In this document: one piece after another, positions 8,093 through 40,305 of the stretch | How the letters are laid out: each line of letters begins with the position of its first letter | Position numbering within the stretch: the stretch's first letter is position 1 | Origin: a virus | Lineage: Duplodnaviria; Caudoviricetes | DNA: 64,000 nucleotides | Virus record (IMG/VR): IMGVR_UViG_3300029982_000009 | Direction: 5' to 3' (one strand) | Program-made: the position numbers and the translations under genes | Notes under the pieces: generated by a model | Told to the model about the DNA's origin: nothing | The model's database searches: none | The model's input: the letters and a program-made list of their open reading frames with translations, nothing else

Positions 8093-10885
8093 TTATACCC
8101 CAACTATTCTGCGATAATCCAATGGGGAATTTTTAAATTTTAGATAAATGCTGCCTTCATCTTGATGTAAAAATTTATCGCTAGTATCAACAAAAGTAAC
8201 ATTATAGAAAGTAGTAGAGTCTCCGATATCTATCTCTTCTGTGGAAATATTAATGCCTGCTTCTGTTGTTAATATTATGCCTAGTTCGGTTAACATATCG
8301 AATATGCTGCTTACTTTGGTGAATTCTGTTATTTCCGATAAACTCCAAGTATTTGTTTCTGTGTTCCAATTTTGCAAAATACCGTAGTTCCAAACATATC
8401 TATCAGTTTCTGCAAAAATTGTATTAAGCGGCCTATTATTATCATAGTATTGTTGTAGATAGAATAATATTTTTTGCCCCTGCCCAGGATTAACGTAGAC
8501 AAGCGGAATTGCGGGTACAAAACCCAATATTTCACCATTTGGCTGAGTATCAGTCATCCAAGTCGGGAGGAAGTTTTCATCAAATCCACTTAACGTTGTA
8601 TTAAGCTGATTAATCATATTTGGAATAGTCGGTGGATATAGCGTTTCATAATTGGCTGTCGTTATACTACCCGAATATGAATTACCGGCTAAATCGGTGT
8701 ATGAGTCTAATGGTTGAATGTAGATGATTTCGTAACCATCAGTTGTACTCTGGGCCCATTTAAGATTAGTAAATAGAAAAGTTTTTCGATGGTAATATTT
8801 GTCCAATGAGGCTGCAATTTCCGCAGGTGTTACTGCTGCAATTCCATATCCGATTAACATTCTTATAGTATTTTGAATGCCAAAATAAAAATCTTGCTGG
8901 CGATAAATTGCAGAGTTTGGAATTATTGCTTGGTCCAATAATGGTGTGAATAATGTTTCGCTATCCTCGTCGTTTAATAAAAATTCTAGGCTCAAATTTG
9001 TTTTCGGTGATGTATTATATGATGAGATCGGTGACGGCACTAAATTAAGAGTAAATGTTTGTGAAGTTTTTGCAAGATATTGGAAGTCTTTGTTCACAAT
9101 ATTATTGGGACCGGGTAAATCTGTTTCTGGAACCATTGACGATTTATTCGATCCTACAATAGCCGTTATGGTAAATGTGAATTGAAGGTCAAATTCTGTT
9201 TTATCGTTTAATAAGGTACAATCATTGAAACTAAAATATTGGAAGCTGGGGCTGCCAACTAAATCACCGTTCGATAATACTCTTAATCCGGTAGGTATCA
9301 TCCCGTCGATTAATGAATAATTAATTGGATTTCCTGGGGTTATTGCCGATCTTTCGGTTATTATGACCGGTGGAATTGCTAGATAATTGCTGCCTGTGTT
9401 GGTTAAGATTATATTTGATATACCGCCATTGTAGACTAGAACGGTTGCGCTAGCAGGTGATGTTTCTCCCGTTAGCCCAAATCCAACCAACGCGGAATCA
9501 TAAAATTCTCCGGTTGATAGTACATTAACCGTGTCAATTCCAAAGTTAAGATCAATAATTGCATTCAGCCCATTGGGATTATTCCATATAATATTAGAAA
9601 GATTTGGTAATTCTGTATATTGTTGAACCCCTGGGCTTATACTAACAGATGATATAGATCCATTGGAGGTATTTCCAGTAACGACAATATTTGCATTCGA
9701 AGAATTAATTCCCCCGGTAACAATGAACCATTCCCCAATGTTAAAATTGCTTCCCCCATTAATAATGGTAGCATCTATTACTTTTAATGTTGCATTTGCA
9801 GTCGCGCCGCCTGCAATTTGCGGTGTAGTAGATTCTAAAATTTCTGCTTTAAATGAAATTGTGCTAGGGACTCCCGGAGTCACGTTGCCAATATTAATAG
9901 GACTTGTCCATTGCACATTTTTTTGGTATGGACTTTCAACAGTAAGATACACGGGAAGAATAGTTTGATATGGATTAATTCCAGATGTCGGTTCAGTAAC
10001 TTTTTTGTAGGCTCTTACATTAAATTCATATGGGGAAGCATTGCTATAATAATTATCGACATAGCCGGTTAACCAGCCGGTATTTGCATTAAGCGATAAA
10101 TTACTATTGGGAAAAACATTTCCATTAATTAATTGGTAATTAATAGTATTGTTTTCATAATCTACCGCTTCAAATTGATGTTGTAAAAAATTGCCTGTTA
10201 TATTTCCGATATTAATATATTTTCCTTCATCTGATTCTAGAAAAATCGGAGAATAATAACTGCCGGAGGATGCTACGGTTAACGTAAAATTTGCAGTAAG
10301 ATTAGAACCGTATGCGGCGGTAAAAGAAAAAGTATTAGAAGACATGCTTAGAGAAATATTTGGCTTGCCAACTTCGATATTAGGATAAATTGCAGGAGTA
10401 TCATATAATACTGCGGGATTAATATACCCAGAAATATATCCGGATGAATCAATAGTAAGATTTCCCGGCAAGCCGCCGGATGAAAGACTAATATTAGGCG
10501 TGAATGGTAAACCGGCAATTGGCGCAATATTGGCCGACATCCAGGCTCCTGCTGGAAAAATTCCTAGATTTGCATTAGGAAAAATATCTAATAATTCAAC
10601 ATTAGATACACAAATTGAAAACGTTCTATCGGCTATTGAATTATTATCAGTTGCTCTAATAGTAAATGAATATGTTCCGGGTAGATTTTCGGAATTCGCC
10701 ATACCCCATATACTAGGAATAAATTGATTTTGCTTGGGAAGAGCTAATGTTACTCCGCTAGGTAACGATCCAGCAATAATATTATAGGTTGCTGTATTGC
10801 TAGCATTACAGTTTAGGTTAACAGAAAAGGTGTTACCTAAATTTACATTAGCGATATATCCTGGGGCTGTTATCCATGTTGGCAT
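8093..10885 (-). CDS. Large baseplate wedge-like protein with Ig-like repeats
   Basis: 930 aa with repeated GxLPxGLxLxxxGxIxG Ig-like motifs; late promoter at 10891-10896. Confidence 0.7.
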   Translation of the reverse strand: MPTWITAPGYIANVNLGNTFSVNLNCNASNTATYNIIAGSLPSGVTLALPKQNQFIPSIWGMANSENLPGTYSFTIRATDNNSIADRTFSICVSNVELLDIFPNANLGIFPAGAWMSANIAPIAGLPFTPNISLSSGGLPGNLTIDSSGYISGYINPAVLYDTPAIYPNIEVGKPNISLSMSSNTFSFTAAYGSNLTANFTLTVASSGSYYSPIFLESDEGKYINIGNITGNFLQHQFEAVDYENNTINYQLINGNVFPNSNLSLNANTGWLTGYVDNYYSNASPYEFNVRAYKKVTEPTSGINPYQTILPVYLTVESPYQKNVQWTSPINIGNVTPGVPSTISFKAEILESTTPQIAGGATANATLKVIDATIINGGSNFNIGEWFIVTGGINSSNANIVVTGNTSNGSISSVSISPGVQQYTELPNLSNIIWNNPNGLNAIIDLNFGIDTVNVLSTGEFYDSALVGFGLTGETSPASATVLVYNGGISNIILTNTGSNYLAIPPVIITERSAITPGNPINYSLIDGMIPTGLRVLSNGDLVGSPSFQYFSFNDCTLLNDKTEFDLQFTFTITAIVGSNKSSMVPETDLPGPNNIVNKDFQYLAKTSQTFTLNLVPSPISSYNTSPKTNLSLEFLLNDEDSETLFTPLLDQAIIPNSAIYRQQDFYFGIQNTIRMLIGYGIAAVTPAEIAASLDKYYHRKTFLFTNLKWAQSTTDGYEIIYIQPLDSYTDLAGNSYSGSITTANYETLYPPTIPNMINQLNTTLSGFDENFLPTWMTDTQPNGEILGFVPAIPLVYVNPGQGQKILFYLQQYYDNNRPLNTIFAETDRYVWNYGILQNWNTETNTWSLSEITEFTKVSSIFDMLTELGIILTTEAGINISTEEIDIGDSTTFYNVTFVDTSDKFLHQDEGSIYLKFKNSPLDYRRIVGV

Positions 10886-34022: not shown

Positions 34023-35342
34023 ATGGTTGAGATGAATCACAATGCGATGGTAGCACTAGTCACCCTTAAGAATGCGGGATTTGAATCCTACTTCGCGGGT
34101 GGTTGCGTGCGAGATTCACTGTTGAATCTTCCGGTTCATGATTGGGATCTGGCCACGAGTGCAACTCCTGATCAGGTCACCGAATTGTTTTCTACCTCGA
34201 AATTGGTTGGTAAGAATTTTGGCGTTTCGGTTGTTAATGTGAATGGTGAGCAGTTCGAAGTTGCAACCTTCCGCGAGGATGGTGCGTATTCTGACAATCG
34301 CCGCCCGGATTCTGTTAAGTTTACAACGGATCCTAGGGAAGATGTTAAGCGCCGTGATTTTACAGTCAATGCACTTCTGATGGACGAATCGGGCAAGGTA
34401 TTTGACTTTGTTAATGGCCTTGCCGACCTCGAAAATAAGGTTTTGCGCACGGTCGGCAATCCTAGCGATCGGTTTCAAGAAGATGCTTTGCGCCTGCTGC
34501 GAGCCGTTCGATTTGCAGCTCGTTTGGGGTTCATGCTTGATCCGCTTACCGTGTCCGCAATGACATTGCGTTCGAAGGATGTTACGACTTTGCCCGCTGA
34601 TCGTGTTGCTGGTGAACTGGCAAAGATTCTTACTGGCGGTAATGTACAGGTAGCTTTTCAGACAATGGACACCACCGGTTTGCTAGTTCATTTTATGCCG
34701 GAACTGTGCAATATGCATGGGGTTACGCAGAATTCAATGTGGCATCCGGAAGGCGATGTGTGGCAGCATACAATGAAGATGCTTTCTATGCTCGAATCCG
34801 GCTGCTCTCTTACGTTGGCGCTTGCAACCTTGCTTCACGATGTAGGGAAGCCGGTCACAGCAAAGACAAATGAAAAGACCGGACATAATCAGTTTCACGG
34901 GCATGAGCACGTTGGGGCTCGTATGGCTGAACGGCTGCTTCGTGATTTTCGGTTTTCAAATGAAGTTGTCGGCACGGTGTCGTCTTTGGTTGAAAATCAT
35001 ATGCGGTTTTTTAACACGGAAAAGATGTCGTTGTCAAAGATGAAGCGGTTTGTTCGTATGGAAAATTTTTCTGAACTGCTTGAACTTAACCGGGTTGACA
35101 GCCTTGGTAGTAATGGCGATCTCACCGCAAACAATTTTTGCCGTGGGTTTCGCGACAACATGAAGGATGAACTTCATCCCGTTCGTTTGCTCACCGGAAA
35201 CGATTTGCTTGCTATGGGATTTAAGGCAGGCCCGGTATTCAAGACTTTGCTAGAAGCGGTCGAAACTGCTCAACTCGAAGGCGTAGTTACTACAAGGGAA
35301 GAAGCGGTAGCGTTGGTTACCGCTTCTTCCGGAAAGGTATAA
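34023..35342 (+). CDS. cca: CCA-adding tRNA nucleotidyltransferase with HD domain
   Basis: GGCVRD, DWDLAT, EVATFR, RRDFTVNA, EDALRLLRAVRF, LLHDVGKP. Confidence 0.92.
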   Translation: MVEMNHNAMVALVTLKNAGFESYFAGGCVRDSLLNLPVHDWDLATSATPDQVTELFSTSKLVGKNFGVSVVNVNGEQFEVATFREDGAYSDNRRPDSVKFTTDPREDVKRRDFTVNALLMDESGKVFDFVNGLADLENKVLRTVGNPSDRFQEDALRLLRAVRFAARLGFMLDPLTVSAMTLRSKDVTTLPADRVAGELAKILTGGNVQVAFQTMDTTGLLVHFMPELCNMHGVTQNSMWHPEGDVWQHTMKMLSMLESGCSLTLALATLLHDVGKPVTAKTNEKTGHNQFHGHEHVGARMAERLLRDFRFSNEVVGTVSSLVENHMRFFNTEKMSLSKMKRFVRMENFSELLELNRVDSLGSNGDLTANNFCRGFRDNMKDELHPVRLLTGNDLLAMGFKAGPVFKTLLEAVETAQLEGVVTTREEAVALVTASSGKV

Positions 35343-37625: not shown

Positions 37626-37679
37626 GTTGTTGCTATATTTTTATTATTGTTGTATACTATAAATATTGAGGAAATAAAA

Positions 37680-38339
37680 GTGAATATTAAGGTTAATTGG
37701 AATTCGATTGATTCGCTGAAAGGTAAAGTTCGATATTTAAAATCTAGAATTCGAGCGTTAGAAAAGAATGGTCTAGGAGCGGAGAATATCGTTAGGCAGG
37801 GTCCAAAATTCGAAGCATATAATTCTATATGGAATTCCGATATTAGCTCGATTTATGAAGATTTAGAATTATCAAACGAAAAGAAATATTTTGTGTATGC
37901 TCACTTGAATCCATTGTTTGATCTTGATTTAGAAAAAGCAAAAGACGCGTTTGCCGCTAGCCTGGGTATGGAGTATGTTCCTTTTTATATAGGAAAAGGA
38001 GTAAATGATCGTGATAAAAATTCGCGGCGAAATGAAACACATCGAAAAATTTTGCAATCTATAAATTCGTTAAATGAAAAGCATATAGTATTTCGAGTTA
38101 AAGGAAGTTTAACTGAAGCAGAAGCATTTCAAGCTGAATCTAAATTAATCGATATTTTTGGACTTTTAACTAATGGTGGTTTATTAACTAATTTGGATGA
38201 AGGGCATCATGCAATACTCAGAAAAAGATTATATCGGGATCATCTTAAGACATTGTGTACTAATTCAGTCGGTTATGCAAAAGTAATGAAAGAATTGTAT
38301 TCGAAACCAATTATGATCAACGAAAAAAAATTTGCATAA
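37680..38339 (+). CDS. GIY-YIG (LEM-3/Seg-like) homing endonuclease
   Basis: YFVYAH...PFYIGKG..DR, EAEAFQAESKLI, LTN; GTG start after TTGCTA-17-TATACT promoter (37630-37658). Confidence 0.82.
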   Translation: MNIKVNWNSIDSLKGKVRYLKSRIRALEKNGLGAENIVRQGPKFEAYNSIWNSDISSIYEDLELSNEKKYFVYAHLNPLFDLDLEKAKDAFAASLGMEYVPFYIGKGVNDRDKNSRRNETHRKILQSINSLNEKHIVFRVKGSLTEAEAFQAESKLIDIFGLLTNGGLLTNLDEGHHAILRKRLYRDHLKTLCTNSVGYAKVMKELYSKPIMINEKKFA

Positions 38340-38340
38340 G

Positions 38341-38694
38341 TTAGAGTCGTACGAAGCATGAATTTCTTTATGCGGACCGGAGTTCAACTCTCCGCGCGTC
38401 CAAAAGAATACTGAACTAGTTAGATAGTTTCGTATTAGATGGATGTGGTGTTACACCCCAGTATTCTACTAGGGCGCGTCACGGTTTCGACGGATAAATG
38501 AAAGTCATGTGGACGGCTTGGGTCTTTGTTATTTTCGCCCATAATTGAAAAATGATATGTATAATTGCCGATTCAATCGTCAATGGCGCGACCAAGATTT
38601 TTACGTACCCTGTAAAAATTAGCAATCGCGAGCTCGCACTAGCCTAAAAACTGTGCGCCGTAGGGTGACCCCGCCTATGTAAAAGAAACGGGGT
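38341..38694 (+). ncRNA. ssrA: Circularly permuted (two-piece) tmRNA
   Basis: T-arm CGGAG-TTCAACT-CTCCG plus CGCGTCC-A (38378-38402) precedes the 5' strand GGGCGCG-TCACGGTTTCGAC (38472); G3:U70; tag ORF 38567-38647; pseudoknots on both sides of the tag. Outer ends approximate. Confidence 0.9.
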
Positions 38695-38705
38695 ATACAA
38701 ATTGT

Positions 38706-38867
38706 ATGAATACTGAATATACATATGAAATTTTGCCACCTATATTAATATGCGATAGATGGCTAGTTTATCGCTTAGATTATCGAGGGCTCGCCCAATT
38801 TTTACGAGTATTTGATACTGAAATCGAAGCTAAAAATTATATTTTGATAGAAAAATTATCCGAATGA
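38706..38867 (+). CDS. Small LSE-tail family protein (53 aa)
   Basis: Manual translation ...FDTEIEAKNYILIEKLSE; ATGA overlap with next gene. Confidence 0.6.
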   Translation: MNTEYTYEILPPILICDRWLVYRLDYRGLAQFLRVFDTEIEAKNYILIEKLSE

Positions 38868-39732: not shown

Positions 39733-40305
39733 ATGACAAAGAATTTATCATCACAAAAAATTAGTTTTATGGATTTAGAAATGTTATGCTGGCCGGATGG
39801 AAAATGCCCATTGGGCCAATCGAAGCATATCATTCAAGTCGGTATATGTGAAATTGACTCATACGATTTGAAAATTACTCGAACAGCTAATTATTATATT
39901 CGTCCGAATTATAAAGATTTTGAAGTATCTGAGTATTGTACTAACCTCACCGGAATAACAAAAGAATTATTATTAAAAGAAGGGAGACGATTTTCGGATG
40001 TTATGAATACCATTCGAAATGAATTTTCTCCGCGAGGAAAAGTTTCTTACGCATGGGGATCGGACAATGATGCTATCATTGAGCAATGTTTAAAAGATAA
40101 TATTGAAAATCCTTGGGGTAATACCGGTATTTGGGATTTGGGTGTTATTTTTCGAAGTAACTATTCGATCAAGAAAAAATTGACGTTAGCAAATGCGTTA
40201 AAATATCTTCATTTAACATTCGAAGGAAAACCGCATAGCGCAGTAACGGATGCTATTAATTTAGGAAGGCTGCATATTGAAATGATTCGAAAGATTCGAG
40301 GATAA
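39733..40305 (+). CDS. DEDDh 3'-5' exonuclease (KapD/ERI1-like)
   Basis: FMDLEMLCW, IIQVGI, WGSD, HSAVTDA. Confidence 0.88.
   Translation: MTKNLSSQKISFMDLEMLCWPDGKCPLGQSKHIIQVGICEIDSYDLKITRTANYYIRPNYKDFEVSEYCTNLTGITKELLLKEGRRFSDVMNTIRNEFSPRGKVSYAWGSDNDAIIEQCLKDNIENPWGNTGIWDLGVIFRSNYSIKKKLTLANALKYLHLTFEGKPHSAVTDAINLGRLHIEMIRKIRG

Follow-up and report, generated by a model that had tools for sequence, protein, structure and literature searches.

tmRNA is an RNA that rescues stalled ribosomes. Two-piece tmRNAs, whose genes are circularly permuted, are known from Alphaproteobacteria and Cyanobacteria and from part of the Betaproteobacteria; the two-piece tmRNA of Caulobacter was reportedly described by Keiler, Shapiro and Williams in 2000. 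Phage tmRNAs have been studied mainly in mycobacteriophages and in phages from the sea, and to our knowledge function has been demonstrated for none of the phage-borne tmRNAs. A 366-bp gap between two ORFs of a peat phage, one ending at 38339 and the other starting at 38706, raises the question whether such an RNA is encoded there and what its unusually long tag might do.

All positions refer to the window, i.e. the whole 64-kb stretch of DNA that was analysed. Judged from its sequence, the window is phage DNA. It carries genes for tail-fibre and virion proteins, a QueD-like protein and a CCA-adding enzyme, and further genes for PhoH, thymidine kinase, ThyX, dUTPase and a clamp-loader-like protein. 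The G+C content is ~36%. The same DNA is present, identical, in many peat metagenomes. The first-pass annotation, made from the letters alone, had proposed a permuted two-piece phage tmRNA with a 26-residue tag. This proposal is borne out by ARAGORN, by the Rfam family RF04321 and by covarying homologues, which support reading the element as a circularly permuted tmRNA gene that is encoded by the phage and specifies a long tag. We put the probability that this gene yields a working two-piece tmRNA for the phage at about 0.8; the biochemical steps would be those known from bacterial tmRNA, from which they are extrapolated.

The tmRNA gene and its parts

ARAGORN and the Rfam covariance models, which the first-pass annotation had recommended as checks, both call a permuted tmRNA at the locus. 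On the whole window, ARAGORN reports a single gene, a permuted tmRNA at 38313-38738, with a tag identical to that read before. RF04321 (tmRNA_permuted), which we take to be the merger of RF01849 (alpha), RF01850 (beta) and RF01851 (cyano), matches 38345-38647 with 60.3 bits (gathering score 47; E = 3.5e-9) and is the sole Rfam family above its threshold in the whole 64 kb. When only the sub-region is searched, the score is 61.0 bits. The parts of the gene, all on the plus strand, and three further genes of the window are:

38341-38402, +, acceptor piece (delimited by sequence, ARAGORN, RF04321 and covariation)
38374-38377, +, GGAC in the acceptor piece
38378-38394, +, T-arm CGGAG / TTCAACT (7-nt loop) / CTCCG
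38395-38401, +, acceptor 3' strand CGCGTCC
38402, +, discriminator A (A73); the next bases are AAAG, no CCA
38403-38471, +, intervening segment (spacer) of 69 nt, geneless, with a perfect 9-bp closing stem 38405-38413 / 38459-38467
38472-38518, +, 5' end of the coding piece (RF04321 alignment, cofold, compensatory changes in acceptor stem and P2c)
38472-38478, +, acceptor 5' strand GGGCGCG, forming 7 pairs with CGCGTCC including G3:U70
38479-38491, +, D-loop analogue, ending in TTTCGAC
38345-38375 pairing with 38491-38518, +, helix 2 (RF04321 alignment, cofold)
38519-38556, +, pseudoknot 1
38519-38522 / 38538-38541, +, pseudoknot 1 stem 1, TGGG/CCCA, covarying in the family
38532-38536 / 38547-38551, +, proposed pseudoknot 1 stem 2, TTTTC/GAAAA, inferred in the window
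38567-38647, +, tag frame: resume codon GCC at 38567, 26 codons ADSIVNGATKIFTYPVKISNRELALA, TAA at 38645-38647
38661-38694, +, H-type pseudoknot (PK2) 3' of the tag, TAGG/CCTA (stem 1) and ACCCCG/CGGGGT (stem 2)
34023-35342, +, CCA-adding tRNA nucleotidyltransferase with HD domain (Pfam PolyA_pol, PolyA_pol_RNAbd and HD), 3 kb upstream of the tmRNA
37647-38339, +, weakly GIY-YIG-like gene (PHROG homing endonuclease, E = 3.6e-5; Pfam below cut-off)
39733-40305, RNase_T-type exonuclease

The gene order is permuted: the 3' tRNA-like half comes first, and a segment separates it from the 5' half downstream. Together, the halves form a tRNA-Ala-like domain with a 7-bp acceptor stem, G3:U70, A73 and a 7-nt T-loop. 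All positions given in the first-pass annotation agree with the sequence. Its 7-bp acceptor pairing with G3:U70 is found in GGGCGCG/CGCGTCC, and its 69-nt segment is indeed closed by a perfect 9-bp stem. Helix 2 is likewise confirmed, with the extent listed above. RNase P, acting at 38471/38472, and 3' processing past 38402 presumably take out the spacer.

A pk1-like pseudoknot had been suggested ahead of the resume site. Its stem 1 covaries, and its stem 2 is tentative in the window, where just 5 bp are evident. In the six relatives described below, complementary two-part strands for this stem were recognized by eye in the segment alignment and in the Tunturi_5 sequence. The H-type pseudoknot proposed after the tag stood up as well, both of its stems being retained, with wholly different sequences, in five peat relatives.

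Several features of the flanks are recorded here. The 10-nt word GAATACTGAA occurs twice, at 38406-38415 (5' arm of the spacer stem) and at 38708-38717 (14 nt past pseudoknot 2). Because of this repeat, the spacer 3' arm CAGTATTC (38459-38466) can pair with either copy, and pairing with the downstream copy would bracket the entire coding piece. Tunturi_5 has a similar pairing, GTGTTGA / TCAACAC, and the other relatives have none. A processing stalk formed by the spacer 3' arm and the trailer was rejected, as it is significant in the window alone (z = -3.2) and not kept across the family. Next to the window tmRNA gene, neither a promoter nor a terminator was predicted. Just past pseudoknot 2, TATAAAT(A) words resembling T4-type late promoters were found in L046 (4045-4060), L025 (9198-9210) and L008 (7148-7158); the only counterpart in the window is TATACAAAT at 38695-38703. 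In the relatives, these words suggest that the coding piece may end there and that the next gene may have its own promoter. Directly 5' of the helix-2 strand, a tetraloop hairpin (e.g. GTC-GAAA-GAC) is visible by eye in several relatives, at approximately L023:7577-7592, L025:8856-8868 and L030:1214-1226, and upstream of P2 in Tunturi_5. The window is without this hairpin; there, the endonuclease-like gene abuts the tmRNA gene.

RNA libraries contain the locus. Six peat metatranscriptome runs match parts of the window, and four of them were aligned to it as assembled contigs. At the tmRNA gene, these contigs cover 38341-38608 (X18) as well as 38342-38492 and 38495-38645 (X19) at a depth of 2-6, and the RNA-contig depth of the neighbouring genes is similar. 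Contigs start at 38341 and 38342 in two runs of one study, which is a weak hint at the RNA 5' end. The contig 38341-38608 (depth ~6) bridges the spacer; it therefore represents a precursor or DNA carry-over and not the mature pieces.

Homologues in peat phages and in Tunturi_5

Relatives were sought with the neighbouring exonuclease as bait, and contigs encoding its homologues were retrieved. Five further distinct permuted tmRNAs were found on peat phage contigs, which together with that of the cultured Tunturiibacter phage Tunturi_5 makes six homologues:

Peat loci with a permuted tmRNA: L008 (also L015, L022), L023, L025 (also L052), L030 (also L041), L046 (also L029)
Tunturi_5 permuted tmRNA: PP885688.1:157899-158195, minus strand, RF04321 86.4 bits

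The five peat relatives reach 63-73 bits with RF04321, all above threshold, and two of the five are called by ARAGORN. The neighbourhood is shared: CCA enzyme, small genes, tmRNA, RNase_T-type exonuclease and QueD recur on three other phage contig types.

Covariation was checked by script; the family alignment spans 381 columns. In all members scored, the two strands of each tested helix pair along their full length despite different sequences. All seven members share G1-C72, G2-C71, G3:U70 and A73 without change. Covariation is seen at the acceptor pairs 4-7: position 4 is occupied by four different Watson-Crick pairs, and positions 5-7 by two each. Complementarity is kept in 7/7 by the T-arm, by P2c (the distal stem of helix 2) and by pseudoknot 1 stem 1; pseudoknot 2 was scored in six members, and both of its stems pair in all six. 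Stem 2 of the latter occurs as ACCCCG/CGGGGT, GTTCCG/CGGAAC, TACCACTT/AAGTGGTA, ATGGCCC/GGGCCAT, CCGCAT/ATGCGG and GCCCTGA/TCAGGGC. Helix 2 and the pseudoknots thus covary, with stem 2 of pseudoknot 1 tentative in the window. By these comparisons, the feature is more than a chance pattern: every helix appears to be retained in the homologues via compensatory changes. Tag, helix-2/pseudoknot layout and synteny place the window gene in a long-tag lineage of peat/tundra jumbo phages.

Tunturi_5 has a genome of 308.7 kb and infects an acidobacterium. Its tmRNA is missed by ARAGORN and absent from the GenBank annotation, where it lies in a gap of 667 bp (L050:2265-2935, minus strand = PP885688.1:157764-158434). 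This gap also contains an intrinsic terminator. Tunturi_5 belongs to the same lineage as the window phage and shares with it a long tag, a stem-closed spacer and a related CCA-adding enzyme, which at 46.6% identity is the best GenBank match to that of the window. Its pseudoknot-1 motif is that of L008 and L030, and its acceptor stem is identical to that of L023. It differs in that CCA is encoded, that the tag has 34 residues (ending in FAMAA) without an obvious KIFTY core, that an intrinsic terminator follows the tmRNA and that the genomic neighbourhood is unlike that of the window.

The gene is not found in all members of the phage group. Among the long-contig relatives, L004-L007 are closest by exonuclease identity (69%); no tmRNA was detected in their syntenic interval (~9224-9600) or elsewhere in the 16.5-20.5-kb loci. 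This means, the gene is variably present. The more distant exonuclease-bearing peat phage contig L040 has no tmRNA match; a cluster of tRNA genes for Trp, Asp, Met and Lys is located at L040:8162-9123. Among GenBank phages, neither the tmRNA (blastn) nor 24 kb of the window (megablast) found anything. In IMG/VR, exact patterns of the tRNA-like domain gave no match, and with the CCA enzyme as bait no relatives were recovered. A degenerate pattern matched just ordinary beta-type tmRNAs and was discarded as not identifying close relatives. Of the matches to the tag-motif pattern, 9 were due to chance and 2 were copies of the L008 type. Similarly, the exact pseudoknot-1 motif of L008, L030 and Tunturi_5 was rejected as a probe for species-representative genomes, where its one match was a chance match in a coding region of Lachnospiraceae.

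The gene upstream of the tmRNA was considered as a conserved partner. In the window, it is the GIY-YIG-like gene, which stops 2 nt before the tmRNA gene. The same slot is occupied in L023 (6826-7602) by an unrelated gene with an N-terminus that is GIY-YIG-like by eye, and in L008 by an unrelated gene of 210 aa. A conserved partnership was rejected, as the L008 and L023 genes are unrelated both to that of the window and to each other.

The lineage-specific models RF01849, RF01850 and RF01851 reach their gathering score in no family member. The best one for the window is beta (34.6 vs 84), and for the relatives the best scores are 49.9 vs 50 (alpha) and 44 vs 84 (beta). Since the best model flips between alpha and beta and none is at threshold, the lineage is not assignable to a bacterial donor group. 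Two further window proteins, compared for host prediction, gave no useful phage matches. A 2025 tmRNA census lists for Acidobacteriota 1589 standard, 0 alpha-type and 5 'beta-type' permuted tmRNAs (PMC11915505 Table S2). By these figures for its host phylum, Tunturi_5, the only cultured carrier, has a host with a one-piece tmRNA.

The missing CCA and the long tag

The window copy is unusual at its 3' end. After the discriminator AAAG follows, whereas 6/6 relatives encode CCA, and the spacer comprises 69 nt vs 21-36 nt after the encoded CCA in the six relatives. An encoded 3' CCA is not a strict criterion for a tmRNA gene. CCA encoding is not universal among tmRNA genes, so that its loss does not disqualify the window copy (PMC11915505). 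Maturation consequently depends on a CCA-adding enzyme. The phage enzyme at 34023-35342 is the likely source of the missing CCA. Its score with the NCBIfam model for CCA tRNA nucleotidyltransferase is 285.7 bits, below the cut-off of 290. It is syntenic with the tmRNA in the relatives. We infer the link between enzyme and tmRNA, which is plausible and not specific, because relatives that encode CCA also carry the enzyme. ARAGORN found no tRNA genes in the window, nor were any found in the fetched 10-20-kb loci of the closest relatives.

A CCA-adding enzyme with HD domain is conserved in the phage group (L008:2554-3879, L023:2163-3533, L004:6075-7397). In addition, an RNA ligase of the T4 Rnl1 type is encoded near it in some relatives (L025:880-2001). 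The combination suggests that the two enzymes may form a tRNA/tmRNA end-repair module.

Loss of CCA and enlargement of the spacer in this copy alone could mark early decay, with helices and tag intact. The stronger proposal that the window copy is decaying or inactive, correct 3'-end formation being blocked by the lost CCA and the enlarged spacer, draws on the fact that it is the only one of seven without CCA and with a 69-nt spacer. Furthermore, the GIY-YIG-type endonuclease-like gene abuts its 5' end and may have replaced the 5' hairpin that is visible by eye in several relatives. We nevertheless regard a dead gene as very unlikely: nothing is broken in the helices, the identity elements, the two pseudoknots or the tag frame, CCA is not always encoded in tmRNA genes (PMC11915505), the phage has its own CCA-adding enzyme and the sequence is unchanged in many peat samples. 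A functional gene is thus the preferred reading for the window copy, too.

The 26-residue tag at 38567-38647 was read correctly in the first pass: the ARAGORN tag is the same, and the frame is open in the homologues. In all seven members, it is open, starts with GCN and ends with an Ala codon and a stop. Peat-phage tags comprise 25-27 codons, and that of Tunturi_5 comprises 34. A core [K/E/D]-I-[F/H/A]-T-[Y/V]-x-[V/Y] is common to six tags, with Tunturi_5 as the one without an obvious KIFTY core. Within this core, synonymous variation is seen (TTT/TTC, ACG/ACC/ACT, TAC/TAT, GTA/GTG/GTT). Between the window and L008, 8 tag codons are identical, 7 differ only synonymously and 12 non-synonymously, with most of the changes at third codon positions (15 differences vs 10 and 6). 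Because this substitution pattern is rich in synonymous changes and biased towards third positions, the tag is considered a translated sequence. The frame thus combines an Ala resume codon, coding-type conservation and a hydrophobic/Ala C-terminus followed by a stop. The C-termini vary between members (LALA, VNA, IAA, VLA, VAA, LVA and MAA), and the C-terminal portion of the window tag is ...KIFTYPVKISNRELALA.

The commonest length of tmRNA tags is 10 residues (PMC11915505). The RNA might be a real tmRNA whose main role is not recycling: the long tag would give tagged proteins another fate than the short host tag does, through a different protease such as Lon, through an adaptor or through some factor of the phage. 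The tags of 25-34 residues with a conserved internal core and variable C-termini, set against the usual 10 (PMC11915505), would fit this proposal. So would the use of standard one-piece tmRNA in the host phylum of the cultured carrier. There is also a precedent in Mollicutes, where long tags have moved from ClpXP to Lon: the longer tag of Mesoplasma florum is read by Lon and not by ClpXP (PMC9382460). On the other hand, conservation of the tag may in part stem from constraints at the RNA level, and redirection of tagged proteins overlaps with rescue instead of excluding it. As an account of the main role, redirection is unlikely, and ribosome rescue is still preferred. The first-pass annotation had offered two speculative ideas, immunity to host tRNA/tmRNA nucleases and altered protease targeting; the latter is indirectly favoured to some degree, as the long tag and the motif inside it are conserved throughout the lineage.

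Proposed mode of action and comparison with known systems

By analogy with bacterial tmRNA, a single precursor comprising acceptor piece, 69-nt stem-closed spacer and coding piece would be transcribed. Host tRNA-processing enzymes would excise the spacer: RNase P would make the cut just before G38472, and an endo- or exonuclease would trim the 3' end after A38402. The CCA end would then be built by a CCA-adding enzyme, most likely that of the phage (34023-35342), else that of the host. Acceptor stem and helix 2 would hold the two RNAs together, and host AlaRS would charge them via G3:U70 and A73. With host SmpB, the RNA would enter ribosomes stalled on broken mRNAs. Translation would resume at GCC 38567, and the 26-residue tag would be appended. 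The likely benefit for the phage would be that ribosomes are kept free while mRNA is degraded during infection. In addition, the tag may set the fate of the tagged chains.

SmpB was not among the matches listed for 35 window ORFs of 123-930 aa, nor was it found in the 127-kb contig of a relative or in the complete Tunturi_5 genome. Accordingly, the phage presumably relies on the SmpB of its host. Function would hence depend on host SmpB accepting a foreign tmRNA, which counts against the preferred reading. The same lack of a phage SmpB in the listed window matches, the 127-kb contig and Tunturi_5 would suit an RNA that acts as a decoy, titrating host SmpB or blocking host trans-translation, as proposed for the RNA of phage DS6A, which is nothing more than a tRNA-like domain. 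A phage RNA consisting of a tRNA-like domain only inhibits tmRNA in E. coli (PMC4131195, PMC11915505). However, a decoy needs no tag, and here the frame, the resume context and pseudoknots 1 and 2 are conserved and substitutions are of the coding type. A decoy role is therefore very unlikely, and the locus is better read as a gene for a working tmRNA.

A more far-reaching idea is that peat/tundra jumbo phages run a trans-translation arm orthogonal to that of the host, with a two-piece tmRNA that fits no bacterial lineage, a phage-specific tag signal and, in the window phage, dependence of the RNA on the phage CCA enzyme; the hosts, at least those among the Acidobacteriota, have one-piece tmRNA. 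We consider it unlikely. If it were true, the long tag with its core [KED]-I-[FHA]-T-[YV] would direct tagged proteins away from the reader of the host tag, to some other protease, an adaptor or a factor of the phage. Independently of this idea, the long conserved tag should be traceable by mass spectrometry, and the CCA-less window copy offers a natural test of whether the phage CCA-adding enzyme serves stable RNAs of the phage.

How does the gene relate to known systems? The bacterial two-piece tmRNA shares the permuted order, G3:U70, the joining of the pieces by helix 2 and a pseudoknot 1 before the resume codon. In contrast, the window gene is phage-borne, cannot be placed in one of the three lineages, lacks CCA and has a tag far longer than ~10 residues. 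The one-piece tmRNAs of the Bxz1 group and Bacillus phage G are phage-borne rescue RNAs, too, but have the standard, unpermuted gene order (PMC4131195). The M. florum tag is similar in being unusually long and in having determinants beyond its C-terminal residues (PMC9382460). It belongs to a bacterial one-piece tmRNA, and no resemblance in tag sequence was seen; the parallel is functional and hypothetical.

Closest in kind are the Methylophilales phage Melnitz and the pelagimyophages (Buchholz et al. 2022, PMC9004378). They also carry a permuted ssrA in a large T4-like lytic phage, with the order acceptor piece, spacer, coding piece, and host SmpB is presumed to be used (PMC9004378). The Melnitz group differs in being marine and in grouping with alphaproteobacterial tmRNAs (PMC9004378), whereas the window derives from peat and reaches no lineage threshold. 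In addition, Melnitz carries a glutamine riboswitch (PMC9004378), while the window has no riboswitch match; the 26-residue tag is counted as a further difference.

The first-pass annotation had stated that phage tmRNAs are mostly one-piece. This is outdated: in one survey 53 of 133 unique phage tmRNA structures are two-piece, and 50 of these 53 come from marine or aquatic phages (PMC9004378). Earlier phage lists contained only one-piece genes of mycobacteriophages and Bacillus phage G (PMC4131195), and the current tmRNA database holds 79 phage sequences (PMC11915505). The two-piece phage tmRNA is therefore already known (PMC9004378), and the system is not new in kind. A soil/peat jumbo-phage lineage with long conserved tags and no assignable donor was not met in the tmRNA literature searched. 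The present gene is of value as a well-founded annotation and as material for comparison: to the mycobacteriophage and marine phage tmRNAs, it adds a soil/peat lineage with a cultured representative, Tunturi_5 on Tunturiibacter.
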